Source: Parcubacteria group bacterium Licking1014_17 (GTDB lineage Bacteria > Patescibacteriota > Minisyncoccia > 2-02-FULL-40-12 > IGHO2-01-FULL-4-A). Taken from it: a stretch of 64,000 bases of DNA. Below, piece by piece: positions 3,914 through 59,873 of this stretch. The first letter of the stretch is position 1. The number at the start of each line of letters is the position of its first letter. Under the pieces are notes generated by a model. The model searched no databases, was not told the origin of the DNA, and saw nothing but the letters and a program-made list of their open reading frames with translations. The stretch covers positions 81,252 to 145,251 of the forward strand of contig VMGJ01000003.1 of NCBI GenBank assembly GCA_007376485.1, read 5' to 3'. Position numbers and translations under genes: made by a program.

Positions 3914-4392
3914 GTGTCGCGGCGGGTCTATAAGCCGGATTTTGTCTTCGCCCTCCTTCGCACGGGGCTACGGAAGGGCAATGTGCGATCATTTGTCTGG
4001 GATGAACATTGCTGTTCACCTCAAGCCCTTGCGGGCTATGCGTACGAACTTTTCGGAGCCCTATCCCGCTTGCGCGGAACGGACAACGCTGTACTTGCAC
4101 CGGGCAGGGTTTAGCACGCACCTATGTCACCATAGGGCGATCAGCCTTAGGCTGAACTTTTCACCTTTCACCCGCCTTGCGGCGGATTAGTATTGTCTCT
4201 GTGCCACTTTCCCTAAGTTTTGGCTCGCGCCTTTTCTCTTAAGAAGAAAAACTGCGAAACCTTATGCTTGGTGGTCGTTAGCCACTGCCCACTTCTTCAA
4301 CTTGCAGAGGGCTTGCCCTGAGCTTGTCGAAGGGAGTCCGGACTTTCCTCTGCCGCCTTGCGGGCGACAGCAACCGCCCAACCCACCGCGAC
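3914..4392 (-). ncRNA. rnpB: RNase P RNA, bacterial type A
   Basis: The minus strand contains GAGGAAAGTCCGGACTCC (P4 5' strand) and ACAAAATCCGGCTTATAG (P4 3' strand). P1 pairing is gtcgcggtgggt with acccgccgcgac, and internal GGGCAGTGGCTAACGACCACC-like elements are present. Confidence 0.85.
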
Positions 4393-6094: not shown

Positions 6095-7272
6095 TAATAA
6101 TATCTTAACGCTTCCAGGGCGGGCAGTTTTTCGCCGCCCAAGAAAATCAGCATTGCTCCTCCGCCGATTGAAACAAAACTGTATTTTTTCAGTAAGCCGA
6201 GTTTTGTAACTTCGCTGATTGTGTCTCCTCCGCCGATAATTGAATTTTTGGCGGCCGCCACAGCTTCCGCGATTTTCCGTGTCCCCTCCGCGAATGCCTC
6301 GGTCTCCGAAAGCCCCATCGGCCCGTTCCAGATAACCATTCCTGCTTTACCGATAAAATCTGCGTACTTCGCGGCGGTTTTCGTGCCAATGTCTAAAATC
6401 ATTTCCTCGCCCGCCACCTTGTCCGCGTCTTTTATTTCGGCTTTGGAAACTGCGAGCGTATCGGGAGCCGTTACCACGTCTTCGGGAATAACAACTTTAC
6501 TCATATCCAAACCCTCCAGTGAATTTATATCTTCCGCGTCAATTAAAGATTTCCCGACTTCCAGCCCTTTAAATTTTAGAAAATTATTAGCGAGCGCTCC
6601 ACCGATTAAAATCCGCTCGGCTTTATCTAGAAAATGTTTTACCACCGGCAGTTTGGTGGAAATTTTCGCTCCGCCGAGAACCAAAACCTTGCCTTCAGCC
6701 GGCGCCTGAATCGCCCGCGAGAGATTTTCTATTTCGTCCTTCATCAAAAATCCAGCGTAAGAATCAATATATTTTGTTATCGCCGAAACCGAAGCGTGCT
6801 TTCTGTGGGCGACGGCGAATGCGTCATTTACGTAAAAATCAAAGCCCTTCGGCTCACTTCGTTCGCTCAGGGCAGGCCCTTTGGCCAGTTGTTGGGCAAA
6901 GGCATCATCATTTTTTTCTTCGCCTTCATGTCTCCTGACGTTCTCCAATAAAACAAAATTGTGCTCATTTAGAGCTTCGACGACAGCAGGACCAACACAA
7001 TCAGAAACAAAAAATATTTCCTTGCCGAGAATTTCCGATATTTGACTTACAATCGGGCTGAAAGTTTCTATGTCAGTGATGTGGGATAAAAGCGCGACTT
7101 TCGCCCCGGCACCTAATAGATAATCTATTGTTTTCTGAACCGCCTGCACCCGATAGTCGCTTGAAATCCTGCCGTGTTCCACCGGTAAATTAAAATCCAC
7201 CCGAACGAGGATTTTTTTATTTGAAAGCTCCGACTGCGGCAGAGAGTCAATATATTTCATAGTTAAAATCAT
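6094..7272 (-). CDS. pgk: Phosphoglycerate kinase
   Basis: KKILVRVDFNLP N-terminus and a glycine-rich C-terminal domain. The real start is probably the Met at MKYIDS. Confidence 0.9.
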   Translation of the reverse strand: MILTMKYIDSLPQSELSNKKILVRVDFNLPVEHGRISSDYRVQAVQKTIDYLLGAGAKVALLSHITDIETFSPIVSQISEILGKEIFFVSDCVGPAVVEALNEHNFVLLENVRRHEGEEKNDDAFAQQLAKGPALSERSEPKGFDFYVNDAFAVAHRKHASVSAITKYIDSYAGFLMKDEIENLSRAIQAPAEGKVLVLGGAKISTKLPVVKHFLDKAERILIGGALANNFLKFKGLEVGKSLIDAEDINSLEGLDMSKVVIPEDVVTAPDTLAVSKAEIKDADKVAGEEMILDIGTKTAAKYADFIGKAGMVIWNGPMGLSETEAFAEGTRKIAEAVAAAKNSIIGGGDTISEVTKLGLLKKYSFVSIGGGAMLIFLGGEKLPALEALRYY

Positions 7273-8264
7273 AGCAGATTATTTGTATTAGTAATAATCT
7301 CCCTAATTTTGTAAGTATTCCCATGCTTCAATAGCCCAAGATATGAATTGATGGTCTCCGTTCTCGGATTTTCTCTGATTCTTTTCAGCATTCTTCTTTT
7401 TGTCGATGTTCTCAAAATTCTGTGGTCTGGAAAATTAACCCAGCCGAGAAAATCAACTCCTGAAGAAAGGGTTTTAACAAATATCTTCTGGGGATGCAAT
7501 CTTAAATCTAATTCTTGCTTTAAATATTCTCCAATCGGCTGAACAATTTGCTCAAGCCACAATCTATCCTCGGATAAAATCACAAAATCGTCGCAGTATC
7601 TGATGTAATGACGGATTTTTAGTTTGTGTTTAATAAATTGGTCAAATTTATTCATATAAATATTCACAAAAAGCTGCGATGTTAAATTGCCAAGCGGCAA
7701 GCCAATGTCTAAACGGCCCGAATTGAAACTGCCGACAACTTCTTTTAACAGCCAAATAACATTTTCGTCGGAAATATATCCTGAAATGATTTTAAGCAAA
7801 ATCGCATGGTTTATGTTGGCAAAGAATTTCCGGATGTCGCATTTCAAAATCCAGCAGGTTCTTGTATTGTTCCGGCTGACTTTACGCGCGAAATAACGAA
7901 AACGATTCAGAGCTTTGTGAGCGCCTTTATTTAACCGGCAGGAAAAAGAATCGGAAATAAATATTCTATCAAAAAATGGATATAGGATTTTATAAATCGC
8001 GTGGTGCAATAGACGATCTCTGACGCTTGCTTTGTGGATATTTCTCGGCTTCGGGTCGCAGATATTGAATGCCTCATAATTTCCGTGTTTGTATGTATGG
8101 TTTACTAAATCTCGGTGCAATTCCAAAATATTATCCATTAAATTAAACTGGAATTCCTGAACATCCCGCCTATGCCTTTTACCACGTAAAAATTCTTTCC
8201 ATGCTTCCAAAATATTCTCAATGCTGATAATATCTTCAAAACTATGAGCCAATTTGATTTTCAT
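7269..8264 (-). CDS. DGR reverse transcriptase (cassette 1)
   Basis: RT domain with YCDDF (the YxDD box) and LPLGNLTSQ, the [LIV]GxxxSQ motif that separates DGR RTs from group II intron RTs (QGxxxSP). There is an adjacent TR and an Avd-like gene. Confidence 0.85.
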   Translation of the reverse strand: MKIKLAHSFEDIISIENILEAWKEFLRGKRHRRDVQEFQFNLMDNILELHRDLVNHTYKHGNYEAFNICDPKPRNIHKASVRDRLLHHAIYKILYPFFDRIFISDSFSCRLNKGAHKALNRFRYFARKVSRNNTRTCWILKCDIRKFFANINHAILLKIISGYISDENVIWLLKEVVGSFNSGRLDIGLPLGNLTSQLFVNIYMNKFDQFIKHKLKIRHYIRYCDDFVILSEDRLWLEQIVQPIGEYLKQELDLRLHPQKIFVKTLSSGVDFLGWVNFPDHRILRTSTKRRMLKRIRENPRTETINSYLGLLKHGNTYKIREIITNTNNLL

Positions 8265-8648
8265 AAAAACAACCCTTTAAGCCCCCCCCCCAAGATCTTA
8301 CCCTTACTTCAAAAGATAAAAGATATGTATTTATTGTGGTATGAATACTATCAGGTATTACCCAAACCGCATAGATATACTCTCGGTCAAAGAATTGATT
8401 ATTTGCTGGTAGAAATCATAGAAGCAATAGCTACTGCCGCTTTTTTGATGCGTGAAGAAAAAATACCGTATGTTCGTTTGGCAGTCAGGAAAGTTGATGT
8501 TTTGAAAATACTCTTAATGATACTTTGGGAAACCAAATCTCTGGGCGATAAAAAATATATAGCCCTCTCATTAAGAATTGACGGGATAGGCAAAATGCTC
8601 GGCGGTTGGCATGGCCAGCTACAAAAACAAAACTCCCCTGCTAAATAG
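8244..8648 (+). CDS. avd: Avd-like accessory protein (four-helix-bundle / 23S-IVS protein family), divergent from the RT
   Basis: 134 aa carrying HRYTLGQRI...IGKMLGGW, characteristic of the PF05635-type bundle. It starts MSQFDFHKNNPLSPPP, with the PPP encoded by a C10 tract. Confidence 0.8.
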   Translation: MSQFDFHKNNPLSPPPKILPLLQKIKDMYLLWYEYYQVLPKPHRYTLGQRIDYLLVEIIEAIATAAFLMREEKIPYVRLAVRKVDVLKILLMILWETKSLGDKKYIALSLRIDGIGKMLGGWHGQLQKQNSPAK

Positions 8649-8668
8649 CCAGGAGAGAAATGAAGTAA

Positions 8669-8803
8669 TTTGCGACGGGTGAATACCCAGCGGTCGTTGC
8701 CATTCCAGAAGTTATCAGGGTTGCCGTTGTTACCGTTGAGCCACAGGTCATCGTCATTGCGTTCGACGTTGAACACCTTGAGGTTGCCGTCCGAGTCCGT
8801 AAT
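8669..8803 (-). repeat. DGR template repeat TR1
   Basis: 135 bp, identical in register to 9137-9271 except for at least 24 positions. Every one of those is T on the plus strand, that is A in the minus-strand template. In the VR frame it encodes AAC-rich NGNNGNPDNFWNGN. Confidence 0.85.
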
Positions 8804-9133: not shown

Positions 9134-9799
9134 CTACTTGCGACGGGCGAATACCCAGCGGACGCGGCCAAACCAGAAGACACCAGGGCGGCCGATGCTA
9201 CCGTCGAGCCACAGGTCATCGTCACGGCGTCCGACGTAGAACACCCCGAGGTAGCCGCCCGAGCCCGCAATCGGCTCCATAGCAATCGGGAGCCCCTCGC
9301 CCTTAGGCTGGTCTTTGTATTGCAAACGCAGCTGAGGACCGACTTCGTTGGGGCAGAGCTGGAGACCGAGACTAAGTGCCCGCTCGTAGATGTCCTTGCG
9401 GGTGGCACCGTCTTTGAAGCCAATCTCAGCGACACTGACGTTCACCAGTCCGATTGAGGTTTTCTTGGGGCTTACCTTGAAATCAGGTCCGCCGAGGGTA
9501 TAGTTGCCCCAGTCGCCGATGCGGAAGCCGCCGTTCTTGAGGGCTTCACGGAACTTGCAAGCGTCCGCAAGCCCAGTGCCCAACTTGACGGTCTTCCAGA
9601 TCGGAAAGTTAACCGCTCCGATAACCTGGGGACGCCCGCCATTCTTGAGGAAGGCGGTGAAGCGGCTACCGAACTCGGCGGATGAAAGGTTGATGACTTC
9701 GACCTGGAGCTTGTCTCCATCGAGCTCATCCCAGTTAATCTGGGTTGCGACTCGGGCCGAGATTTCGAGAGCTTGACCGCGTGATACGGCTTTACTCAT
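9134..9799 (-). CDS. DGR variable (target) protein 1. It is cytoplasmic, about 221 aa, with the VR at the C-terminus
   Basis: SD AAAGGAGAAA 7 nt before the ATG (MSKAVSRGQ). The C-terminus ...GRRDDDLWLDGSIGRPGVFWFGRVRWVFARRK is encoded by VR1. Confidence 0.8.
   Translation of the reverse strand: MSKAVSRGQALEISARVATQINWDELDGDKLQVEVINLSSAEFGSRFTAFLKNGGRPQVIGAVNFPIWKTVKLGTGLADACKFREALKNGGFRIGDWGNYTLGGPDFKVSPKKTSIGLVNVSVAEIGFKDGATRKDIYERALSLGLQLCPNEVGPQLRLQYKDQPKGEGLPIAMEPIAGSGGYLGVFYVGRRDDDLWLDGSIGRPGVFWFGRVRWVFARRK
9137..9271 (-). repeat. DGR variable repeat VR1
   Basis: See TR1. The VR runs through the stop codon of the target gene. Confidence 0.85.
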
Positions 9800-9925
9800 T
9801 GTCGTTTCTCCTTTTTCTGCCAGAGGGCTACTATCCGTAGTCATAGCCAGGAAATTCCGATAAATCAGGATCTCCTGGCTATGACTACAATCGCAAGAAG
9901 TATTAAAGAGCGACATTATGTTCTA

Positions 9926-33591: not shown

Positions 33592-34590
33592 CTATATCAT
33601 CGGATTCCCCAAATTGGCAATAATTCCCCTAAGTTTGAAAGTATTCCCATGTTTCAATAGCCCCAAATATGAATTGACAGTTTCTGTTCTCGGATTTGCC
33701 TTGATTCTTTTCAATATTCTTCTTTTTGTTGACGTCCTCAAAATCCTGTGATTTGGGAAAGTAATCCAGCCGAGAAAATCAATGCCCGAAGAAAGAGTCT
33801 TAATAAATATCTTTTGGGGATGCAATCTTAAATTTAATTTTTGTTCCAGATATTCGCTAACTGGTTGGATAATTTGTTCAAGCCATGGCTTATTTTCGGA
33901 CAAAATCACAAAATCATCGCAATATCTTATGTAATAGCGAATTTTCAGTTTGTGTTTAATAAATTGGTCAAATTCATTCATATAGACATTCACCAAAAGC
34001 TGCGAAGTCAGATTGCCGAGCGGCAGACCGATGCCGAAGTAGCCCGAACTGAAACTGCCAATAACTTCCTTTAACAACCAAATAATGTTTTCATCGGGAA
34101 TATATCTTGAAATGATTTTCAATAAAATCGTATGGTTAATATTGGCAAAGAATCTTCGGATGTCGCATTTCAAAACCCAGCAGGTTCTTGTGTTGTTCCG
34201 GCTGACTTTACGCGCAAAATAACGAAAACGATTTATAGCTTTGTGTGTGCCTTTATTTAATCGGCAGGAAAATGAATCGGAAATAAACGTTCTATTAAAA
34301 AATGGATACAATATCCGGTAAACCGCGTGGTGCAACAGCCGGTCACTGACGCTTGCCTTGTGAATATTCCTCGGTTTCGGGTCGCAGATATTGAATGCTT
34401 GATAATCGCCATGCCTATATGTATGATTTACCAAATCTCGGTGTAATTCCAAGATATTGTCCATTAAATTAAACTGGAATTCCTGAACGTCCCGCCTGTG
34501 TCTTTTGCCCCGCAGAAATTCTTTCCATGCTTCCAAAATGTTCTCAATACTGATAATATCTTCAAAATTATGAGCCAATTTGATTTTCAT
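33592..34590 (-). CDS. DGR reverse transcriptase (cassette 2). The ORF track extends it to 34767, but the homologous start is MKIKLAH at 34590
   Basis: About 88 percent aa identity to RT1, with the same YCDDF and LGNLTSQ motifs. Confidence 0.85.
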   Translation of the reverse strand: MKIKLAHNFEDIISIENILEAWKEFLRGKRHRRDVQEFQFNLMDNILELHRDLVNHTYRHGDYQAFNICDPKPRNIHKASVSDRLLHHAVYRILYPFFNRTFISDSFSCRLNKGTHKAINRFRYFARKVSRNNTRTCWVLKCDIRRFFANINHTILLKIISRYIPDENIIWLLKEVIGSFSSGYFGIGLPLGNLTSQLLVNVYMNEFDQFIKHKLKIRYYIRYCDDFVILSENKPWLEQIIQPVSEYLEQKLNLRLHPQKIFIKTLSSGIDFLGWITFPNHRILRTSTKRRILKRIKANPRTETVNSYLGLLKHGNTFKLRGIIANLGNPMI

Positions 34591-34982
34591 AAAAATAGCC
34601 CTATAAGCCCCCCCCCAGGGTTTCGTTGCCGATATTACAAAGGTTGGTTTCGGCATACAAGCTGTGGCATGAACATCTGTCGCATTTTCCCAAAACCTCA
34701 CGATATACGCTCGGCGGGAAAATTGACAGCTATTTTGTAGACGCCGTCGAAGCGATTCACACCGCAAGTTATCTTGGCAAATCAGAGAAACTCCCTTGGA
34801 TCAGGCGCGCGATAACAAAACTTGATGATCTGAAATTCTTTTTGCAAATCGCTTGGGAACTCAAGGTATTGGATAACAAAAAATACATAGCACTTTCCGA
34901 GCCGCTGGCCGAAATTGGCCGAATGCTGGGCGGATGGATGCGGCAAACGGAGTCGGCAAAAACAAAACCGAACCTGTTATAG
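34498..34982 (+). CDS. avd: Avd-like accessory gene (cassette 2). It appears frameshifted at a C9 tract. The N-terminus MSQFDFHKNSPISPPP (frame A) and the body from 34626 (frame -1) are rejoined by one extra C
   Basis: The body carries SRYTLGGKI...IGRMLGGW. The poly-C is at 34608-34616. Confidence 0.7.
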
Positions 34983-35002
34983 GTTCGGAGAAACTTTGCT
35001 TA

Positions 35003-35126
35003 CTTGCGGCGAGCGAGGAACCGGCAGTCGCCGTCCCACTTGTTACCGAGGTAATTGAGGTTCGCGTTCCGCTCGTTGGCGTTCCTGTAGACGTACACGA
35101 CGTTCCGGTTGCCGTTGCGGTCCTGC
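35003..35126 (-). repeat. DGR template repeat TR2
   Basis: At least 17 mismatches to 35478-35602, all at plus-strand T (minus-strand A) positions of the TR. Confidence 0.85.
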
Positions 35127-35468: not shown

Positions 35469-36113
35469 CTACTTCTGCTTGCGGCGAGCGAGGAACCGGC
35501 AGTCGCCGTCCCACTCGCCACCGAGGTAATCGAGGGACGCGCACCGCTCGTCGGCGTGCCTGCAGACGAACACGACGCACCGGCTGCCGTGGCGGTCCTG
35601 CCAGTGCTGGCCGATGGCCGGGATCGGGAACTCCCGCTGGAGCTCCGGCTTCTCGGCGCCGACGGTCAAGTCCTCGTAGGCGTCGGCGGGCTCGAGGTCG
35701 AGCTTCGCCAGCTCGGTGAGCACCTGCTCGTCGCTCATGTCTCGCCCGAAGTGGACGAGGACGAGGTCGCTCTTGACCCTGCCCTTGAGGCGCGGCGGGA
35801 AGTTCTTGGCGTTGACGTTGCCGTTCTTCCAGTCGTACTTCCCACGCTTGAGCAGATCGGCTATGTCCTCGTCGTAGTCGATGACGTGGCAACCGAGCTT
35901 GGTGATCGTGGGGTCAGGGTAGATCGGGGCGAGGCCGAGGACCTTCCGCAGGGCGTTGCGCTCGGGCAACGTTCCCTGCTTCGAAGCCTCAATCACGTCG
36001 GCGACGATTCCGCTATCGAGCAAGTCCGCCTGGAACTTCTCCACAGTCAGTCCCTTGTCGTTGGCAAGCCGGACAACTTCATTTCCTTGGGCGAGCGTCA
36101 CGTTGTTGGCCAT
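35469..36113 (-). CDS. DGR variable (target) protein 2. It is cytoplasmic and 214 aa. The whole gene is markedly GC-rich relative to its neighbours
   Basis: SD GAAAGGAGGG before the ATG. The C-terminus ...CRHADERCASLDYLGGEWDGDCRFLARRKQK is encoded by VR2. Confidence 0.8.
   Translation of the reverse strand: MANNVTLAQGNEVVRLANDKGLTVEKFQADLLDSGIVADVIEASKQGTLPERNALRKVLGLAPIYPDPTITKLGCHVIDYDEDIADLLKRGKYDWKNGNVNAKNFPPRLKGRVKSDLVLVHFGRDMSDEQVLTELAKLDLEPADAYEDLTVGAEKPELQREFPIPAIGQHWQDRHGSRCVVFVCRHADERCASLDYLGGEWDGDCRFLARRKQK
35478..35602 (-). repeat. DGR variable repeat VR2
   Basis: See TR2. Confidence 0.85.
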
Positions 36114-39133: not shown

Positions 39134-39256
39134 AAGCGGGTTTTTCATACAAAAACCAACCAAGTGGTGGCTTAATAATAGAAGGAAGAAAAAAAAAGAG
39201 TGTTTCTGCCGAGCCCCCAAAAATAACAAGTAAAATAGGAAAGGTACCCATATTGG

Positions 39257-48426: not shown

Positions 48427-48546
48427 ATTGGTCTGGCGGCTACCCACTTTCGCAGTCATACGACCACTATCATAGGCCTTGATGGATTTCACTTCTGAGT
48501 TCGGAATGGGATCAGGTGGGACACCATCGGTATAGTCGCCAAGCCA
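48427..48546 (-). rRNA. rrf: 5S ribosomal RNA
   Basis: The minus strand reads ...CCCACCTGATCCCATTCCGAACTCAGAAGTGAAA... with a helix-I closure. Confidence 0.85.
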
Positions 48547-48983
48547 ATGTTTTTTATTACACGGCAAACAATGTCGCCTTAATGGCAACAGAATAAATTG
48601 GACACTCAACCTTGTAAGGAAATACAGACGATCTATTAGTAACTCTTGGCTCAAAGCCTTGCGGCTCTTACACCTGAGTCCTATCAACGTGGTAGTCTTC
48701 CACGGATCTGCGAAGCCTAATCTTGGGGCCCGTTTCGCGCTTATATGCTTTCAGCGCTTATCGGAACCGAACATAGCTGCCCAGCGCTGCCCTTGGCAGG
48801 ACAACTGGTAGACCAGAGGTTCGTTCATCCCGGTCCTCTCGTACTAGGGACAACCCCCCTCAAGCTTCTAACGCCCACACCAGATAAGGACCAACCTGTC
48901 TCACGACGGTTTGAACCCAGCTCGCGTACCCTTTTAATTGGCGAACAGCCAAACCCTTGGCAGCTTCTTCACCGCCAGGATAG

Positions 48984-49862
48984 GGCGCACATTTATCTTC
49001 TATTACTAGAAGTGCAGACTATATCTTCTCCCGTCTTCCAATCGAAAGGTGGGAGTTGGCGTATTATAGCAGTTAAAAAACTGCTATCCTCTCGCAATAG
49101 CGAGAAAGTCGTTACGGGGTAAGAGAAACTTTATACAATAGACTATCTAAAATATACGGCTTGATGATTTCACAAAACTTTTGCGATGATCTTTCCGGAA
49201 TATATATGTTGAATGTTTTACCCTTTTTATGGATTGCCGCTACGATTCCGAAATTCATCTTCAGACAATCCACTAGCATTTGCTGTTCTTGATACGAAAA
49301 TATATCCGTATTAAGTCTCAGCGCATTACAATCGTTCCGTTTATATCCGTCGTCCATTACCCAAACCGCCAGCGATAATGGTTCAATAAGAATTTCTTGA
49401 ATATTATCAGGAACTATTTTGATTCTATTCTTGTAAAACATATCCCGCCATTCCTGAAATATTCCGTTTGAACATGTCGAGAAATGTAACCGCCTGTATT
49501 CTTTATTCTCTTTCTTGTGGAACGAAGTGATAACTCTGGGCTTACTTGGCACAAGGTTTTTAAATACTTCATATTTCCATAATACATACTCCTTCTGTGC
49601 CATGCCGTGGTCTACTTTTAGACGCACGCCCTTGCCATTTTGCTCCAGATGCCCGTCGCCGAGCATTGTTCCAATTAATATCGCTTTTTGTGTTGCCGTT
49701 AATAGCATACTGTATAAAGCCTCTCCTACTTCCCACGATATTATCCTATCATAGCTGGGTAGCCTCTAATAGGACTCCATCGTTATTAGCCAACGTTGCA
49801 AGTTTATTTCTTAAAAGACACAAACTTGCCAACTCGAATTACTTCGAGTACGGCCCGTTTTG
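48984..49862 (-). mobile_element. Intron-like insertion (putative group I intron) in 23S domain V. It interrupts GATGTCGGCTCA | (T)ATCCTGG and carries a LAGLIDADG gene
   Basis: The exon sequence is contiguous with E. coli-like 23S on both sides, and the boundaries were located by eye. Confidence 0.6.
49112..49708 (-). CDS. LAGLIDADG homing endonuclease (two-motif, monomeric type)
   Basis: [11 protein letters not shown] and [10 protein letters not shown] motifs. Confidence 0.85.
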
Positions 49863-50172
49863 TTGAGCCGACATCGAGGTGCCGAACACTGCCGTCGCTA
49901 TGGACGCTCGGGCAGTACCAGCCTGTTATCCCCGGAGTAGCTTTTATCTGATGATCTTCCCCGTTCCTACGAACAAGGGTCGGTTCACTAACACCTGCTT
50001 TCGCATCTGCTTGACACATCCGTCTCACAGTTAAGCCGGCTTATGCGTTTGCACTATCGCTCCGATTTCCATCCGGAGCTAGCCGACCTTCGTACGCCTC
50101 CGTTACTCTTTAGGAGGCAACAGCCCCAGTTAAACTGCCCGCCAGACACTGTCTTGATGGCACCCTAGAAGG

Positions 50173-50474
50173 GGACGAGTAAACTCGTCCGAGCATCCTG
50201 TAATATTCGTTCAAATATCACAGGATGTTATAGATTATGAGCATTAAAGAATCTAATCTCATTTTTTTGATCGCTGATACAGGTCAGAAAGAGTTTTTCA
50301 TCCCCAAAACAAAAGGGTTGTAAACTCCTGTCGCCTATGTTTTTCAACACCGCATTGGCGACATGTTTCTCTAGATCCGAACTTTCAAAATCAAACTTTA
50401 TCTGCTGTGTTCGGACTTCTGGCCCGCCTTCACATTTATTAAAGTGAAGTTTCAGAAGTATCATTTTATTTCCT
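50173..50474 (-). other. About 300-nt insertion in the terminal loop of a 23S domain-V helix. The arms are ggtggcaccctggaagg and ccttctagggtgcc. It contains an SD-led ORF plus two 3' hairpins
   Basis: The helix arms are perfectly complementary and flank the insert, and the equivalent E. coli helix is a short hairpin. Confidence 0.5.
50228..50464 (-). CDS. Small ORF of 78 aa from the SD-proximal ATG, embedded in the 23S helix-loop insertion
   Basis: GGAAGGAGGAAATAAA-ATG. The ORF ends just before two stable hairpins. No recognisable domain. Confidence 0.4.
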   Translation of the reverse strand: MILLKLHFNKCEGGPEVRTQQIKFDFESSDLEKHVANAVLKNIGDRSLQPFCFGDEKLFLTCISDQKNEIRFFNAHNL

Positions 50475-50770
50475 CCTTCCAGGGTGCCACCAGTTAGAAT
50501 TACAAATGACAAAGATGGGTGTTTCATTGGCGGATCCACGCCTCCCGAAAGAGGCGCTTCAAATCCTCCCCACTACGCTACGCATTGCCGCTCGTAACCC
50601 AATATCAAGCTACAGTAAAGCTTCCGGGGTCTTTCCGTCTTGGTGCGGGTAGTCAGCATCTTTACTGACATTGCATTTTCACCGGGCTAGTGGCTGAGAC
50701 AGTCCCCCAGTCGTTACGCTATTCATGCGCGTGGGAACTTACCCCACAAGGTATTTCGCTACCTTTGGAC

Positions 50771-51522
50771 AGTTCATTCTTTTTATTAGTCTCGGCGGAT
50801 TCAATAAACTCGCCACCGGACAGCCTCATAGTCGCCTATGAGATCGGACTCTATCTTATCGCAATTTTTTGCGATTCTGACGTATTAGTCTCTGGGGATT
50901 CTCGAGATTTTTGGTAATCAGAAAGAGAATATTTTCGCTTCCTGCCCTTACCTTCATTTAACTTCTCTCTTAATTCAATAATTTTTTCAAGACCCTCACG
51001 GGTAAAATGTTTGCCATTCGAGATGGTCTCAACGATTCTTTTGAATATCGAGAAGTTTGTTTTCTTTGAAGATGATAAAAAATTATATCTTTCAAAGAAT
51101 GGCACAATGATATCTCTCAATGAGTTTAGATTATTCACTGAATAATTCCAAACTCCATCTTTTCTTAACTCTAACCTTCCTGCCCCGAAATGTTTTTTCA
51201 TTAACGCCAGGACTGTCTGATCTCTTTGAGCCACATTGAAGGTCAAATAGATTTTCCAGCCAAAGCGGTAGTCATTCCTGGGAATTAACGAAACATTGAA
51301 GCTACCTTCACCATCCACAAAACCGGTAAAATACCAAGCTGTCGAGATGGGAATTTGTTTAATAACTTCTTTCATTTTGTTTAGAGTCTCGAGTCTTTCC
51401 TGCGGATTATCTGCACTGATGTTTTATTACTGATCTTCGACGTTCGGATCTAGTAACATCAGATACTAACCAGACTTTCCCGCATATAGTCAGATTTTAC
51501 AACTACAACTGTCGTTATAGTT
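50771..51522 (-). mobile_element. Intron-like insertion (putative group I intron) in 23S domain IV at the helix-69 region. It interrupts GGTAACTATAACG | GTCCAAAGGTAGCG, near E. coli position 1917, and carries a LAGLIDADG gene
   Basis: Exon junctions were read directly. Confidence 0.6.
50851..51375 (-). CDS. LAGLIDADG homing endonuclease (single-motif, homodimeric type)
   Basis: FTGFVDGEGSF motif. Confidence 0.85.
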   Translation of the reverse strand: MKEVIKQIPISTAWYFTGFVDGEGSFNVSLIPRNDYRFGWKIYLTFNVAQRDQTVLALMKKHFGAGRLELRKDGVWNYSVNNLNSLRDIIVPFFERYNFLSSSKKTNFSIFKRIVETISNGKHFTREGLEKIIELREKLNEGKGRKRKYSLSDYQKSRESPETNTSESQKIAIR

Positions 51523-52554
51523 ACCGCCGTCGTTCACGGGTGCTTCGGGCATCTGCAATGAGCTTGCGCCCACCACTTCAACCGTTAACATTCCCGCACC
51601 GGACAAGCGTCACCCCGTATACATCCTCTTTCGAGTTAGCACGGAGTTGTGTTTTTGATAAACAGTCGCCAGGGGTCTTTCGCTGCGTCCGCGCTTGCGC
51701 GCGGAAGGCCTTATCGCTAACTTACGGCCGCTTTTTTGCCGAGTTCCTTAGCCACTAATCACCCGTTCGCCTTGGTACAATCATACCGGTCCACCTGTTT
51801 CGGTTTTAAATACGTACCCAATCCTTTTGTCTTTAGAAGTTTTTCTTGGAAGCGCGCTCCCTTGAATTTCACCTTGCGATGATTTCCACAACGCTTGGGT
51901 TTCGCACTGAAGCGGCGACACGGATTTGCCAATGTCGCACCCTTACGCCATGAACGCAAATCCTTAATGCGCTCAGGGTACTGCATTTCGTCTCTCCATC
52001 AGAAAGGACCGGGGGGCCGGAATATTAACCGGCTATCCTTCGGCCTCCCCCGCCCGCAAGCGGGGTTATCCTTAGGCACGCCTAACCCTCCGTTGATTGT
52101 CATTGCGGAGGAAATCTTGGACTTTCGGCGAGAGGGGTTTTCACCCTCTTTGCGGTTACTCATCCGAGCATTCTCTCCTCCAAGCGCTCCAGCATGTCTC
52201 ACGGCACACCTTCACTGCGCTTGAAGTGCTCCCCTACCGTATGGAGACTTCGTAAAGGACTTAAGAATAAAAATTCTTAAGAAAAAAAAATGGACGGCGA
52301 GGAAGTAACTATGGTATCCAGGCACCACCAAGGACTTGCCCGGTCCCGGAACCCCACTTTTATACGTGAGGTTCTTAAGTTGGACTTTTAGGGAGCAGTA
52401 GCCATGGTTTAGCGGTCCGCGATAGTTAACTTCCTCGCTTATTTTTCCTTTACGAAATCTCCACACCCACGCATTCGGTACTATGCTTAGCCCCGTTGAA
52501 TTTTCGGCGCATCTTGCCTCGCACGGCCGAAGCCGTGTATCGAATAGTAAGCTG

Positions 52555-52596
<42 letters not shown>

Positions 52597-53227
52597 TATC
52601 TGTCTAAGGCAAAACACTTCCTTCTGTCACTTAGCATAGATTTAGGGACCTTAAGCTGTGGTTAAACGGCTATTCCCGTCGCGACCGTGAAGCTTTGCCC
52701 CCACGGTCTCACTACCGGTCATTACGCCGCGGTATTCAAAGTTTGGTTGATAATCCTACCCAGAGGGCACAGAAAATCATCCAGAGCTTTACCCCCGCGG
52801 TTACTAACCGGCGCTGCCCCTAAAGGCATTTCGGGGAGAACCAGCTATTACCGAGTTCGATTAGCTTTTCACTCCTACCCGCAAGTCATCCGATGATGTT
52901 GCGCTATCAACCAGTTCGGGCCTCCATCCGCCTTTCGGCGAACTTCACCCTGCTCACGGGTAGCTCACCCGGCTTCGGGTCTTTTACAAGCTACGTACAC
53001 ACATATATAAACCGAGGTGCAAACTCACCCGGTTTATATAGATGTGAGTCGCGCTATTAACACTTGGTTTCCCTTTGTCTCCGCCCTGTCGGGCTTAGAC
53101 TTTGCAACTTGTAAAAACTCGCTCGGTCATTCTTCAATAGGCACACCGTCGCCCCTTCGTCTTGCGACGAAAGAGTTCCGGCTCTTTGTAGGCATATGGT
53201 TTCAGTTACTATTTCACTCCCCTCACC

Positions 53228-53270
<43 letters not shown>

Positions 53271-54292
53271 ATCATCAAAAGTATTTAGTCTTGGACCGTA
53301 GTAGGCCCGGATTCACCACGGATAGTCTCGTCCATGGTTACTTAGGTAAAGAGACTTTCGCCTCAATAATACGTAGAGTTCGGAAATTTTCGCTTACGGG
53401 GCTATCACCCTCTTTGGCCGGCCTTTCCAGGACCGTTCTGCTAACCGCCGAATTTGTAACTCTATTTATCTTTGGAGCACAGCTTTCAGCCTCCCATGCC
53501 TCATGGCAGTGGAAGCTGGTCGCCGTGCAGATAATTGTATTATCCCTGCAACACCCGTTTATGTACTTTTAGGTACGAACAGGTTTAGACTATTGCCCCT
53601 TTCGCTCGCCACTACTTGGGGTATCGCGAACAACAAACGCCTGTATGCCTTGCGGCACACGGGTGTTCATTGTTACGTTCGCTTTTTTTTCCTCTGGGTA
53701 CTGAGATGTTTCACTTCCCCAGGTACGCCTCCCGGCTTGCGCCGGAATCACCGCATGTTACTGCAGTGGGGTTTCCCCATTCGGACATCTCCGGATCAAA
53801 GCCCGCTAGACGGCTCCCCGAAGCTTATCGCAGTCACGCCACGTCCTTCATCGCCTTTTGATGTCAAGGCATCCTCCATACGCCCTTGTTATGCATTTCC
53901 TTACAAGGTTGAGTTTCCAATTCCTTGTAGTACTTCCGATACCAAAGCCGCATCTTCTTATACCAGAAGTTCTAATCAGACTTAATTGTTAAAATTCTTG
54001 CCTTTTGCTCCCTGCGGCTGGCTCCTTAAAGAGGCAATCGTAGGAGGCTCTCCTTCGCCGAAAACGTATCATGGCTTCGGGGGAGTGGGCAAATTAGACT
54101 TAAAAACCGCGTCCGGCGCGGCTGTTTTGAATCGCTTCAAGTTAAAAATCAGCACCAGCCGCTTGTTTTTATAAGTCTATTGTATTTGGTATTCATTTGT
54201 CTTTGGTAATTGTAGCAGAACCCAACCTACGGAGTCAATACGTATGTTGATAAGGCGTTGATATCGCTAAGGACATCTTCAGACGGCGCGCC

Positions 54293-54410
54293 CCTCACCA
54301 CTTTTGCCGCCCAGCCAACGATTACTTCCGTTAAAACCTATTGCTGATTGCGCCGTTGGTTTTAAGCTTAAAACCAACGGTAATTTTCTGGCAAAAGTGG
54401 TGGGGGGGGT
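54293..54410. other. Nested inverted-repeat structure about 400 nt upstream of the 23S 5' end. Outer stem ccaccacttttgcc / ggcaaaagtggtgg, inner perfect hairpin ccgttggtttt-aagctt-aaaaccaacgg
   Basis: Read directly. It may be an rRNA leader or processing element. Confidence 0.3.
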
Positions 54411-54425
54411 CAGCGTAAAACTCAA

Positions 54426-55121
54426 CTAATCATTTACATGCTTGCGCAAGTCGCCGATCAACGAATCGGCATGTTCCTTTCCGCCTAACCCAAAGGCAAT
54501 GCCTGCCGCCAACGCGGCGGCGGCGATAATACCCATGATTGCCGTGCGGATAATATCCGTGCCTACTTCAAGTTTCTCCAGAGCGATAAGGAAAGAGAAA
54601 ATCAGCACCGCCCACCTTGCTATAGACCCAAGGAAATTGGCTGACGCCAACTTTGCCGCTTTCATTGAACCGCGCACCAACCCTTCCGCGAACTTGGCGA
54701 CGAGAGCTCCGATAATAAGGACTATCGCCGCTACGAATACATTCGGCAGATAGAGCACGACGGTCTGCAAAAATTCCGTCACCTGATCTAAGCCGAGTAT
54801 ATCAGTGGCAGCCATCAACGATACTATTATGAAGAACCACTTCACCAATTCATAGAAGAATATCGGGCTGTCCAGTTTATATCCGCTCCTGTCCCAAATC
54901 TTTTTGAAGCCGATGCTTTCAAGAATCTTGTCCAGTTGAATTATTCTGACGAGGTGCCAGACAAGCTTCCCGATAATAATGGCGACAATCCAGCCGATTA
55001 TGAAAACCAAAATCGCCGCGATCAGCTGAGGCAGAAAATTCACAACACTGCCCCAAAGACTCGTAAAGGTATCTCTGATTATATCCAAACCACTTGCTCC
55101 GTAACTGTTATACATACTCAC
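54426..55121 (-). CDS. Small polytopic membrane protein with conserved TM-helix repeats (MscS-related / YnaI-like, tentative)
   Basis: 231 aa and about 5 TM helices. Confidence 0.45.
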   Translation of the reverse strand: MSMYNSYGASGLDIIRDTFTSLWGSVVNFLPQLIAAILVFIIGWIVAIIIGKLVWHLVRIIQLDKILESIGFKKIWDRSGYKLDSPIFFYELVKWFFIIVSLMAATDILGLDQVTEFLQTVVLYLPNVFVAAIVLIIGALVAKFAEGLVRGSMKAAKLASANFLGSIARWAVLIFSFLIALEKLEVGTDIIRTAIMGIIAAAALAAGIAFGLGGKEHADSLIGDLRKHVND

Positions 55122-55282: not shown

Positions 55283-57337
55283 TCAAATCAAAAATCTCGC
55301 TATCAGCAGCGCCACGATGTTTGCTACCTTAATCATCGGATTGATCGCCGGTCCCGCCGTGTCTTTGTAGGGGTCGCCGACTGTGTCGCCTGTCACCGCC
55401 GCCTGGTGGGCGGGGGATTTTTTGCCGCCGAAGTTCCCTTCCTCAATATATTTCTTGGCGTTGTCCCAGGCGGCGCCGCCGGAAGTCATTGATATTGCCA
55501 TAAACAAACCGGTGATAATTACGCCAACCAACAGACCACCCAACGCTTGTGGTCCCAGCAGAAAGCCGACAGCGATGGGAATTACGATTGGAATCAAGGC
55601 GGGGATTATCATTTCTTTCAAAGCCGCCCTGGTAACAATATCTACCGCCGCCGCGTAATCGGGTTTTCCCGTCCCCTCCATTATGCCGGCGATTTCCCTG
55701 AACTGCCGGCGCACTTCTTCAACTATCGCGCTACCGGCTTTGCCCACCGCCTTCATCGCCATCGAGCCGAAAAGATAAGGCATCATGCCGCCGATTAATA
55801 AACCGATTAAAACCGAAGGGTTAGTCAAATCAAAACTGATGGGCGCTCCGGCGCCGGCAAATTCTTGGGTGTAAGCCGAAAACAAAACCAGAGCCGCCAG
55901 TCCCGCCGAGCCGATAGCATAACCCTTGGTTACCGCCTTGGTAGTATTACCCACAGCGTCCAACGGATCCGTCGCCTGCCTTACTTCTTCCGGCAGGTTA
56001 GCCATCTCGGCGATGCCGCCGGCGTTATCCGTAATGGGACCGAAAGCGTCAATTGCCAAAACTATCGCCGCCAGCGAAAGCATGCTCAAAGTAGCCAGCG
56101 CCACTCCGTACACGCCGACAAAAATATATGAGCCGAGTATCGCCGCGCAAATCACCACCACCGGCCAGACCGTTGACCGCATGGAAACCGCCAGCCCGGC
56201 GATGATATTTGTGCCGTGCCCGGTCTTGGATGCTTCGGCAATCCCCCGCACCGGTGAGAATTTTTTTGAAGTGTAATAATCCGTAATCCAGAAAATCAAG
56301 CCGGTAACCGCCAGTCCTATTATCAGGGCCAGAAATATTCTATAGCCGGCGATTTCGCCCAGCACCGGTTTCCAGACCAACGTCACGTAAAAAGAAGCGA
56401 CAGCCAGTATCGCTGTAAGAATCAGTCCCTTGTACATTGAACCCATAATACCCCCGTTCGGCCCATTCGATGGACTCAGGGCAGGCAGGCTCGGGGCAAG
56501 CACCTTGGGACCCAATTTTACAACCAGCGAACCTACAATTGACGCCAGCACGCCGATAGCGCCGATAAAAAGCGGAAAGGTAATTATATTCGCGATTGAA
56601 GAATAAAGTAGATTGCCCAGAAGCATTACCGAAATCGTAGAGACCAGATAAGTTTCAAAGACATCCGCCGCCATGCCTGCTGTGTCGCCGACGTTGTCGC
56701 CTACGTTGTCAGCAATGACCGCCGGATTGCGCGGGTCGTCTTCCGGAATTCCGGCCTCAACTTTGCCGACCAAATCCGCGCCGACATCCGCGCCCTTCGT
56801 GTAAATCCCCCCGCCAAGGCGGGCAAAAACCGAAATCAGCGAACCGCCAAAGCCCAAACCAATCAAGGCGGTTACGTCTTTAGTGAACCAATAAAATAAA
56901 GTCAGAACCAGAAGCCCGAGGCCGACCACGAAAAAGCCGGTTACCGCCCCGCCGCGGAAAGCCAGATTGAAAGCGTTGACGATGCCCGATTTTGCCGCTT
57001 CCGCTACCCGCACGTTCGCCCGCACCGCCACAAACATCCCGATATAGCCGGCGAGCGCCGAAGCCGCCGCGCCCACAATAAACCCAATTGCCGTGGTTAC
57101 GCCCAGAAATATATACAGGATTATCGCTACCAAAATGCCGACGACGACTACGACCTTATACTGCCTTTTCAGATAGGCATTCGCTCCTTCGCGGATTGCC
57201 TGCGAGATGGACTTCATCTTTTCATCCCCCTGCGGTTGTTTCAAAACGTTAAGTATCAAAACCGCCCCGTAAACCAGCGCCGCCAGAGCCGACGCCAAAG
57301 AAAAAATTAAAATAGTCATATGGATTAAAACTAACAA
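55283..57337 (-). CDS. hppA: Membrane-bound proton/sodium-translocating pyrophosphatase
   Basis: [14 protein letters not shown] and other V-PPase signature segments, about 16 TM. Confidence 0.9.
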
Positions 57338-58356
57338 ATAGATATCTTTTTTTCCAGTTTTGACTCCATCGCTTTCTGAATATTATAACCGCAACAATGT
57401 TTCAAAACTCCCAGATAAGATTGTAAGTTATCGGTGTTAACTTTTTTCAAAATTCTTCTTCTTGTTTTTGTTCTCAAATTTACGCAGTATGGTCTGACAA
57501 TATAACCCAGAAAATCAATTCCCTGCCGGTATTTTCTAATGATAATTTTTTGCGGATGAAGATTTAATTGTAATATATTATTCAGATAATTGCCGACTAA
57601 AAACGATAATTCGTATAAATAATTTTTATCTTCGCTTAAAATAATAAAATCATCGCAATATCGGAGATAAAATTTCAATTTCAGATGGTGTTTTACAAAC
57701 TCATCCAACTCATTCAAGTATATATTCGCGAATAGCTGGCTTGTCACGTTGCCGAGTGGTAATCCTTTGTCAATATCTTTTTTAAAACTACTAATAATAA
57801 CTCCCAACAGCCAGAGTACGTTTTCGCCGTGAATCTTTCTTTTTATTAGACCAACTAGAATTTCGTGATCTATCGAATCAAAAAATCTCTTGACATCGCA
57901 TTTCAAAGCAAAAATATTCCTGCTGTTGTTTCTGCTCAATTTGCGGCAAAAAGATTTTAATCTCCTGATTCCTCTATACGTGCCTTTTCCCAGCCGACAA
58001 GAATAAGAATCAAAAATAAACCCAGCATCAAAAATTGGATAAAGAATCCTGAAAACGGCGTGATGCAGGATTCTATCTCTAACTGTGGCCTTATGAATGT
58101 GCCGAAGCTTTGGGTCAGTGATGCAAAAAGATTCGTATGGTGAGTGCTGATAAATCTTGGCTGATAGTTGATTGTGTAACCCAAATAGGTTATCTTCCAG
58201 ATTAAATTCGAATTCTAAAATGTCGCGTCTCTTCTTCTTTCCACGCCTAAATTCTTTCCACGCTAAAAACAAATTTTCCAAACTGATTATTTCTCCAAAT
58301 AAATCATGACTCTTATAAGCCCCCCCCCAAAAAAAAACTCCATACCTTTGATTCAT
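57331..58356 (-). CDS. DGR reverse transcriptase (cassette 3). The start is ambiguous, and the ORF as drawn reads through a T9/G9 homopolymer
   Basis: RYCDDFIIL and LPLGNVTSQ motifs. Confidence 0.8.
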
Positions 58357-58671
58357 AGTATTTGCGATTTATACAGGAAAATATATCTTGTCGGACTTAA
58401 AATCCCCAAAAGAGACAGGCTGGGAATTTGCGCAAAAATTGAATCTATATGCCTTGATTTAATAAACTTACTAATTTCAGCCGCTTTTGAATCTAAAGAT
58501 AGGAAATTGTCTTTTCTTACTATTGCTCGTGTTAAAACAGAAATTCTAAAAAGATTGGTCCGGCTTGCGCATGAAATTGACGTAATCAAATCAGTTAATT
58601 ATATAGAATTGGAATCGCAATTGCAGGAAATATCAAAAATGATAAATGGCTGGATCAAATATTTAAAGTGA
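58306..58671 (+). CDS. avd: Avd-like accessory protein (cassette 3)
   Basis: 121 aa, [10 protein letters not shown] encoded by a C9A9 tract, with a C-terminal ...EISKMINGWIKYLK. Confidence 0.8.
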   Translation: MTLISPPPKKNSIPLIHSICDLYRKIYLVGLKIPKRDRLGICAKIESICLDLINLLISAAFESKDRKLSFLTIARVKTEILKRLVRLAHEIDVIKSVNYIELESQLQEISKMINGWIKYLK

Positions 58672-58700
58672 GAAAAACTCCCTAAGGAGTTTTTCTCACA

Positions 58701-58824
58701 AAACTACCTGACGGGCACGGAGGTTGTCGTTGGCATTGCCTGTGTTGTTCCAGTTCACGTTGACCTTGTCATCGCTGTTCCGATACATGTTTGGCACGTC
58801 GCCATCCTTGTTGCGAGAACCCGC
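58701..58824 (-). repeat. DGR template repeat TR3
   Basis: 124 bp at a constant offset of 410 from VR3. At least 20 mismatches, all at plus-strand T positions of the TR. It is AAC-rich in the VR frame. Confidence 0.85.
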
Positions 58825-59102: not shown

Positions 59103-59873
59103 CTACAGAGAAACTACCTGACGGGCACGGAGGCGGCCGCTGGCAAGGCCTGTGAGGTCCCAGCTCACGTAGACCCTGACATCGCTGCCCCGATACATGA
59201 CAGGCACGACGCCATCCTTGTGGCGAGAACCCGCACATAAAGTTACGTTCTTATTGTCGAGATGGCCACTGGTCTTCCAATTGAACCATCGCCCAAGAAG
59301 AAGCCTTTCAAGAAGATTTATACTATTGATTTTCTTCTCCGCGACCCAACTGGCGGAGAGATTCTTGAGCTCTTCGTCAGCCTCTACGCGGTCACGCGTC
59401 CAGATAACGTAGGGCTTGCCGACGGGCATCCTGACGTTTTTTGTGACGACTTCATCCAAATTAGCATCACAAAATTTCCATTTCTCCGGGAACGAATCGA
59501 AAACCATCTGCATTGTCACACCGGGAACAACCAGCACACCCCAATTAAAACCGGGGGTTACTGGGGGCAGGGGAATTTGCGATGTTTTTCGGATTCTGAT
59601 GTTAAGCGCCTCCTTATAGAAATCCGCCCAGTCCTTCAGGAAGGATTTAACATCCAGCCCCGAGGTGGCATAGGTGATGCCTCCGTTGTCCTGATTAGTG
59701 GCTGTAGTTACGTCACCAACCAGTACGATTTCTGCCTCGCCGCGAAGGGCTTTGAGATGTTGACTGGCAATATTGCCACCACTCAGCTTTTTCACGTCTT
59801 CTGGCGTCCACCCCCCACGCTCAAAAGCGTGATCCAGCTCGGCTGCCTGTCGACTTGTCATAATTGATCCCAT
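59103..59873 (-). CDS. DGR variable (target) protein 3. It is cytoplasmic and 256 aa
   Basis: SD AGGAGA before the ATG. The C-terminus ...GSRHKDGVVPVMYRGSDVRVYVSWDLTGLASGRLRARQVVSL is encoded by VR3. Confidence 0.75.
   Translation of the reverse strand: MGSIMTSRQAAELDHAFERGGWTPEDVKKLSGGNIASQHLKALRGEAEIVLVGDVTTATNQDNGGITYATSGLDVKSFLKDWADFYKEALNIRIRKTSQIPLPPVTPGFNWGVLVVPGVTMQMVFDSFPEKWKFCDANLDEVVTKNVRMPVGKPYVIWTRDRVEADEELKNLSASWVAEKKINSINLLERLLLGRWFNWKTSGHLDNKNVTLCAGSRHKDGVVPVMYRGSDVRVYVSWDLTGLASGRLRARQVVSL
59111..59234 (-). repeat. DGR variable repeat VR3
   Basis: See TR3. Confidence 0.85.

Follow-up and report, generated by a model that had tools for sequence, protein, structure and literature searches.

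The locus described here raises the question of why a run of nine cytosines should sit inside a gene that it puts out of frame. The gene is avd, which encodes the accessory protein of a diversity-generating retroelement (DGR), and it lies in a 64-kb stretch of DNA from Parcubacteria group bacterium Licking1014_17 (hereafter the window), whose genome is on record as a single assembly. The window contains three DGRs of the same layout, and avd of the second one is split at its poly-C tract. We found that the tract is probably a hypermutable simple sequence repeat (SSR) in the avd leader that acts as a translational phase-variation switch on avd. Among the explanations weighed below, this one is the best supported because the SSR site is conserved in related loci, near-identical relatives differ at the tract only, the frame statistics fit it and open ATG codons are in excess upstream of the tract. 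The initial annotation, which had read the tract as a candidate site of slipped-strand phase variation, is supported by these comparative results.

The three cassettes share one order: a minus-strand target gene with the variable repeat (VR) at its 3' end, a minus-strand template repeat (TR), the avd gene in plus orientation and the gene of the reverse transcriptase (RT), again in minus orientation. All three RTs matched the Pfam family RVT_1 and all three Avd proteins matched the Pfam family bAvd (PF22296). The mismatches between TR and VR were found at TR adenines only (24/24 in cassette 1, 16/16 in cassette 2 and 20/20 in cassette 3). Each cassette therefore contains the parts by which a DGR is recognized, namely an RT, an adenine-restricted TR/VR pair and a four-helix Avd accessory protein. 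In every cassette, avd and RT stand head to head at their 5' ends, and the poly-C tract is located between the avd ATG and the four-helix body. The three avd tracts are the only C runs of at least 7 nt in the window, where about 0.18 runs of C9 or longer are expected, and they are not there by chance. In cassettes 1 and 2, the tract is located 17 nt upstream of the RT ATG on the opposite strand, and the avd and RT open reading frames (ORFs) overlap by 21 nt. Shine-Dalgarno sites are mostly absent from the Licking1014_17 genome, and the avd ATGs have an A/T-rich context like its other starts. Scans for sigma-70 promoters revealed nothing conserved between the cassettes.

The second cassette, in which the split occurs, contains the following features.

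33592-34590, minus strand: RT2, the DGR reverse transcriptase (Pfam RVT_1), with the start ATG at 34590 set by homology to RT1
34498-34740, plus strand: mechanical ORF that starts at an upstream GTG and follows the leader frame through C9 into out-of-frame sequence
34570-34607, plus strand: avd2 leader, made up of an ATG and 12 codons (MSQFDFHKNSPIS) that lead into the tract; the RT2 start lies antisense to the first 21 nt of the leader
34608-34616, plus strand: poly-C tract C9, the candidate switch, whose assembled length leaves avd out of frame
34626-34982, plus strand: avd2 body, with the whole of the four-helix bAvd domain (PF22296, E=1.9e-13, covering positions 5-106 of the 107 in the profile)
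34968-34988, minus strand: hairpin resembling a terminator, with UUUUGUUUUU after it, immediately 3' of TR2; it overlaps the avd2 stop
35003-35126, minus strand: TR2
35469-36113, minus strand: target gene of cassette 2, 214 amino acids
35478-35601, minus strand: VR2, at the 3' end of the target gene

The product that begins at ATG 34570, MSQFDFHKNSPISPPPGFRC...*, reads MSQFDFHKNSPISPPP and then continues out of frame to a stop at 34740. The avd2 body (LPILQRL...) begins with a TTG codon and lies in the -1 frame relative to the leader. The division that had been described, with the leader in one frame and the body from 34626 in the -1 frame, is thus what the sequence contains at these positions. 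It had also been claimed that one added C restores a protein colinear with Avd1. This proved correct in silico, and the removal of two C has the same effect; the restored proteins are 137 and 136 amino acids long, respectively. Beyond the tract, the ORF at 34498-34740 is no real protein. The TTG at 34626 is preceded by GC-rich sequence, unlike the other starts in the window, and is a possible weak alternative start of avd2. The RT2 translation contains the motif LGNLTSQ, which we take to be typical of DGR RTs. A Pfam search with the target gene of this cassette gave no match.

The N-terminus of the leader had been called conserved. The leader frame is as described, but the fact that MSQFDFH is conserved in both cassettes 1 and 2 gives no independent support for its translation, because this segment is the reverse complement of the RT start MKIKLAH. 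A further possibility is that avd2 is a decaying pseudogene in a dead cassette, as its out-of-frame assembled state might suggest. However, the body ORF is uninterrupted and matches its Pfam profile over the full length, RT2 is intact, and TR2 and VR2 differ at 16 adenines with no other substitution in 124 nt. Because the Avd body and RT2 are intact and the TR2/VR2 differences are of the adenine type only, cassette 2 is not decayed, and we regard a pseudogene as exceedingly improbable.

The avd genes of the other two cassettes are in frame, with the features listed below.

7269-8264, minus strand: RT1 (RVT_1), with its ATG at 8264
8244-8648, plus strand: avd1, 134 amino acids with the leader (MSQFDFHKNNPLSPPPKILPLLQK...), ATG at 8244 (Pfam bAvd)
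8282-8291, plus strand: poly-C tract C10, in frame (ON)
8670-8803, minus strand: TR1
9138-9271: VR1, inside the target gene at 9134-9916 on the minus strand
57331-58356, minus strand: RT3 (RVT_1), whose sole in-frame ATG, at 58356, is beyond the tract
58306-58671, plus strand: avd3, 121 amino acids, ATG at 58306 (Pfam bAvd, E=1.5e-15)
58320-58337, plus strand: compound tract C9A9, in frame for avd3
58701-58824, minus strand: TR3
59111-59234: VR3, inside the target gene at 59103-59873 on the minus strand

The avd1 ORF passes from ATG 8244 through Ser-Pro-Pro-Pro into the body LPLLQK..., and the earlier statement that the C10 of cassette 1 yields an intact Avd holds, since the 134-residue ORF matches bAvd. 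The avd1 entry in GenBank is a 107-residue version from an internal ATG (P0002, 100% identical to the avd1 body), although the 134-residue ORF is open. Exact look-ups with the 134-residue Avd1 and with the RecA encoded in the window gave no match. We also observed that many Avd homologues have been called with truncated or odd N-termini. Gene callers such as Prodigal probably avoid a 5'-5' overlap with RT. The AlphaFold2 model of Avd1 contained four helices with a mean predicted local distance difference test score (pLDDT) of 86.9. Residues 1-16 were predicted to be disordered (pLDDT <50), the helices begin at residue 20 and the bundle begins at LPLLQK. Because of the predicted disorder of residues 1-16, the leader looks like a dispensable carrier of the start codon and the repeat.

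In cassette 3, the avd ATG stands 14 nt before the tract, and the overlap of RT3 and avd3 extends to 51 nt. RT3 has no in-frame ATG, GTG or TTG between the tract and its conserved N-terminal region, and it reads T9G9 as ...VFFWGGA.... Judged from this arrangement, a single slip in C9A9 would frameshift RT3 and Avd3 together.

We compared the site with the corresponding region of related loci. Homologues of Avd1 number more than 1,300; those with a named source are nearly all from Patescibacteria, and many of the homologues begin with M-x-x-L-N-F-H ... P-P-P-x-x-L-P-L-L-Q-K. The loci sampled were 80 from species-representative genomes, 80 from metagenomes and 14 found by exact protein look-up. 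The 168 analysable loci were dereplicated at a flank identity of at least 97% into 133 clusters with 140 cluster-plus-tract states. RT was divergent from avd in almost all sampled loci, with the RT ATG about 28-35 nt to the left of the avd body and the repeat in between. The states were distributed as follows.

Poly-C, C7-C13 (mode C9-C10): 117 states; 48 in frame with the upstream ATG, 66 out of frame and 3 with no ATG
Repeat of another type at this site: 11 states; 8 in frame
Degenerate tract: 12 states; 9 in frame

A repeat was present at the site in 128 of the 140 states, either as C7-C13 or as a tetra-, hepta- or dinucleotide repeat. The repeats other than poly-C were (GCCA)9-11, (CAAC)7-11, (CAAT)7, (TCAG)5, (AGCAATC)11 and (GA)6, and none of them has a unit length divisible by three. 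The type of repeat varied among lineages and its position was constant; in 380 kb of related loci, all C or G runs of at least 8 nt except one were found at the avd junction. As far as these loci indicate, the conserved feature is a presumably slippery repeat at this site rather than any given sequence, peptide or RNA motif. In the metagenome collection, no match was found to a DNA pattern that covers the leaders of cassettes 1 and 2. We rejected the idea of a phage feature, as only 2 relatives occurred among viral contigs. Two variants of the arrangement were observed. One lineage (L086-L092) has about 100 nt of additional sequence, including the inverted repeat CCGCCAGCTGGCGG, inserted between the avd leader and the RT ATG; its avd and RT ORFs do not overlap, and the arrangement of ATG, leader and C9 is still present. 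In L050, ACG stands in place of the usual leader ATG and the tract is no longer than C6, and this cassette may have lost its leader start.

A switch of the proposed kind requires that the leader be coding, and the frames of the upstream start codons bear on this point. An ATG with a frame open to the tract was found in 135 of the 140 loci, compared with 56 +/- 5.7 in shuffled sequence. Such an ATG was found even where there was no overlap with the RT start, for example in the ATGATG-C10 of L012, L014 and L016. In the poly-C loci, the upstream ATG was in frame with the body in 48/117 (41%), which is about the value expected by chance; when the ATG nearest to 37 nt upstream of the tract was considered, frames 0, 1 and 2 relative to the body were occupied by 43, 43 and 28 loci, respectively. 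Of the loci with tracts other than poly-C, 17 of 23 were in frame (Fisher p=0.005 versus poly-C), and of those lacking any C run, 6 of 6. Taken together, these statistics indicate that the leader is coding.

According to one alternative, the tract would be non-coding for avd: Avd would start at or just before the body, and the repeat would act on RT, through its 5' untranslated region or promoter spacing, or on the overlap of the divergent transcripts. The tract position (17 nt upstream of the RT ATG here, and about 13 nt as a median over the relatives) would suit such an element, as would the near-random frame of the upstream ATG in the poly-C loci and the fact that the body alone is a complete bAvd domain. 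A TTG or GTG stands at the body start in about half of the OFF loci, which also points this way, but 32 of the 66 OFF poly-C loci have no canonical start there (TTA, CTA or ATA instead), and in such loci the next start truncates helix 1, as in the 96-residue protein P0144. After dereplication, a canonical body start (TTG, GTG or ATG) was present in 34/66 OFF and 17/48 in-frame poly-C loci; an enrichment in the OFF loci was apparent in the first 80 loci and is not used as an argument. The upstream ATG being in frame in all six loci without a C run and in 8 of the 11 loci with tetra-, hepta- or dinucleotide repeats is hard to reconcile with a non-coding tract, and open ATGs to the left of the tract are far commoner than in the shuffles. 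In addition, 28-77 nt of unrelated repeats replace poly-C at the site, which fits no fixed RNA or promoter motif, and a conserved promoter was not found in the scans of the cassettes. We therefore regard this alternative, with a tract that is non-coding for avd, as unlikely.

Two more specific roles of the tract were tried and set aside. Selection for a Pro-Pro-Pro peptide was judged unlikely. The tracts are pure C rather than mixed proline codons, and Pro-Pro-Pro is lost where the run has decayed (to PPV, PSR or NAT); the exception is L006, where the tract CCGCCGCCG encodes Pro-Pro-Pro by synonymous changes. Since Pro-Pro-Pro is not kept after the decay of the run, selection appears to act on the DNA run rather than on the peptide. 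A function of the poly-G strand as a Shine-Dalgarno site for RT was also rejected, because the spacing given above is too long and variable and the genome is mostly without such sites.

The proposed switch further implies that the tract changes in length between close relatives, and such changes were observed. Among the Moranbacteria from Rifle, 19 contigs from several samples and metagenome-assembled genomes carry a truncated avd product of 96 residues, and the tract was C10 and out of frame in 5/5 of the contigs read among them (L081-L085). L093, from another metagenome, has C12 and is in frame; it differs from the Moranbacteria C10 sequence by 0 mismatches and 1 gap in 3293 nt. L094 (C9, in frame) has 1 mismatch in 564 nt relative to the same lineage. 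Over 1158 nt, 0 mismatches separate L095 (C9, in frame) from L124 (C10, out of frame). L107 (C10) differs from L166 (C11) by 1 mismatch in 2736 nt, and L055 (C13) is 99.9% identical to L138 and L140 (C11). The tract is thus the sole indel in four lineages with 0-1 substitutions per 1.1-3.3 kb, all of them relatives and not the organism of the window. Within protein clusters of 90% identity, the N-termini contained PPP, PPPP or PPPPP, or the called product was truncated. One apparent ON/OFF pair was discarded: in cluster 6, P0058 (132 residues) and P0164 (118 residues) differ only through the gene caller, as 7/7 contigs had C9 and were 100% identical.

Some loci have two upstream ATGs in different frames (L034, L056, L125, L129 and L137), and L107 and L166 are each in frame with a different one. 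At the (GCCA)n loci, nine units are in frame with one ATG (L125), ten units with the other (L034) and eleven units with neither. Two of the three repeat-number classes are therefore in frame at loci of this kind, which suggests three-state rather than two-state switching there.

These length data also bear on the possibility that the C9 of cassette 2 is an assembly or polishing error, the true length being C10 (or C7) and avd2 being intact. The genome is known from a single assembly and homopolymers of 9-10 nt are error-prone. However, 59% of the homologous poly-C loci, from many independent assemblies, are not in frame, the lengths are reproducible over independent samples (as in the five Moranbacteria contigs with C10), and differences of 2 nt occur. 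Such an error, which we hold to be improbable, would touch cassette 2 only and not the family-wide pattern.

Another explanation is that Avd is expressed independently of frame, by RNA polymerase slippage or tRNA-Pro frameshifting on C9-C13, so that the tract attenuates Avd to a low level instead of switching it. Transcriptional slippage is favoured by long homopolymers, and +1 shifts are favoured by CCC-C sites. The near-uniform frames of the poly-C loci agree with this explanation, and so does the stability of an OFF state, C10, in all five contigs read from the Moranbacteria population in which 19 carry the truncated product. In contrast, the tetra- and heptanucleotide repeats at the site cannot act in this way. 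A programmed frameshift has one fixed direction and a conserved stimulator; here, all three frames occur, close relatives differ, the needed shifts go in both directions in similar numbers, and no conserved stimulatory element was seen. We consider frame-independent expression to be distinctly unlikely.

Returning to the phase-variation switch, the mechanism that we propose is as follows. In the DGRs of the Candidate Phyla Radiation (CPR)/Patescibacteria with avd and RT starting head to head, in which the arrangement is conserved, translation would begin at the ATG to the left of the tract, often antisense to and overlapping the RT start, and would reach the four-helix body by way of the tract, read in most cases as Pro-Pro-Pro. 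During replication, slipped-strand mispairing would add or remove repeat units and would move the ATG into or out of frame with the body, so that the synthesis of full-length Avd would be ON or OFF according to tract length. As assembled, cassettes 1 (C10) and 3 (C9A9) would be ON, and cassette 2 (C9) would be OFF, needing one more C or two fewer. According to a report on the Bordetella phage DGR, bRT, Avd and the DGR RNA were required and also sufficed for cDNA synthesis (PMC6182149). By analogy, the OFF state of avd should halt the retrohoming of its cassette; it would stop or strongly reduce adenine mutagenesis of the target and freeze the variable region until a later slip re-armed it. The three independent tracts would give the population mixed diversification states. 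We infer both the switching in the Licking1014_17 population and the absence of Avd when its frame is broken. Three marks of an SSR contingency locus were found: a repeat in the putative 5' coding region, a frame moved by the repeat number, and polymorphism among near-identical strains, in this case relatives.

Several points weigh against this switch. The length polymorphism is known from relatives, and Licking1014_17 is represented by a single assembly, so its C9 could be an error. A few of the related genomes were assembled from long reads, and homopolymers in such assemblies are error-prone. The near-random distribution of frames in the poly-C loci would also be expected of a non-coding tract. 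The codon at the body start (TTG in cassette 2, canonical in the 34 of 66 OFF poly-C loci mentioned above) may give a leaderless four-helix protein and hence a leaky OFF state. Finally, runs of C9-C10 can cause slippage of RNA polymerase or of tRNA-Pro, which would blur the difference between ON and OFF.

As to the meaning of these results, we find the case evenly poised on whether most Patescibacteria DGRs carry a built-in contingency switch, an avd-leader repeat that stochastically arms and disarms each cassette and possibly affects the divergent RT as well. If this were true, the DGRs would form a two-tier evolvability circuit, in which a slip to OFF locks a useful target variant and a slip to ON resumes the search. 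A DGR that is always on erodes its own well-adapted variants, and a heritable, reversible OFF state would solve this problem. Genomes with several cassettes, such as the three here, would show combinatorial states, and the OFF state would at present prevail in over half of the assembled populations. This would be the first regulatory principle for the very abundant CPR DGRs, and it would extend contingency loci from pathogens to uncultured environmental episymbionts. The tract also explains the frequent truncated or missing avd annotation in CPR genomes, the avd of cassette 1 having been deposited as a 107-residue fragment, and surveys that demand an intact avd will undercount such DGRs.

Some further features of the window were observed. 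On its own strand, each TR is followed immediately 3' by a hairpin and then UUUUGUUUUU; this element overlaps the 3' end of avd, which is on the opposite strand, and the U-run of this hairpin is supplied by the codons of the conserved Avd C-terminal KQNSP. The hairpin could terminate the TR RNA, and by analogy it could be the counterpart of the segment that binds Avd in the Bordetella phage DGR, which is located downstream of TR. Other long homopolymers were a G8 just downstream of the stop end of the minus-strand ORF 54426-55121, an A9 upstream of a large ORF starting at 39257 and an A9 inside the 23S region. The 23S rRNA match extends over 5.3 kb, compared with a model of 2.9 kb, which indicates large insertions in the gene, and ORFs lie inside it, for example at 49112-49708 and 50851-51375. 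The positions of these features are given below.

3915-4389: RNase P RNA
about 8625-8660: hairpin sequence similar to that of cassette 2, after avd1
39189-39197: A9
48431-48543: 5S rRNA
48616-53900, minus strand: 23S rRNA match
52282-52290: A9
54402-54409: G8
about 58670-58700: hairpin sequence similar to that of cassette 2, after avd3

We compared the proposed switch with known systems. Repeats in the 5' coding region cause translational phase variation of lic1A, with (CAAT)n, and lgtC, with (GACA)n, in Haemophilus influenzae, and the poly-G/C tracts of Campylobacter jejuni and Neisseria have the same effect. As in these loci, the avd repeat is located just after the start codon in an apparently dispensable leader, its units are not divisible by three and its C/G runs are 7-13 nt long; one related avd lineage even uses (CAAT)n, as does lic1A. 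In H. influenzae, lic1A has alternative ATGs in other frames, and some avd loci similarly have two ATGs with two of three lengths ON (L034/L125 and L107/L166). Unlike in the classical contingency loci, the gene encodes an accessory protein of targeted hypermutation instead of a restriction-modification enzyme or a surface structure, its hosts are CPR bacteria from the environment instead of host-adapted pathogens, and the avd tract is also located in the 5' region of a divergent, overlapping RT.

In H. influenzae hifA/hifB, with (TA)n, and in the poly-C promoters of Bordetella fim, the repeat lies outside the ORFs and sets promoter spacing. The avd site resembles hifA/hifB in having a single repeat between divergent genes and resembles fim in being poly-C, but the evidence presented here favours a coding-frame effect on avd, and no promoter was found in the scans. 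In Salmonella, indels in the tandem repeats of mutL form a reversible mutator switch. In both cases, a slippery repeat would toggle a system that sets the supply of mutations; mutL acts on the genome-wide rate, whereas the avd switch would gate one variable region of about 120 nt per cassette.

According to Wu et al. 2018 (PMC5758913), 90% of CPR DGRs have architecture B3, in which avd and TR vary in order or orientation. The cassettes of the window are like B3 DGRs in having an RT, a bAvd-type protein, a TR, a target with a C-terminal VR and adenine-only mismatches. Neither PMC5758913 nor the other literature searched, which excluded Paul et al. 2017, the main paper on CPR DGRs, was found to mention phase variation, a repeat tract or a frame problem in avd. 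Relative to all of these systems, the novelty is in what is switched, namely the accessory protein of a targeted hypermutation system, in an arrangement conserved across a large clade of uncultured environmental bacteria.

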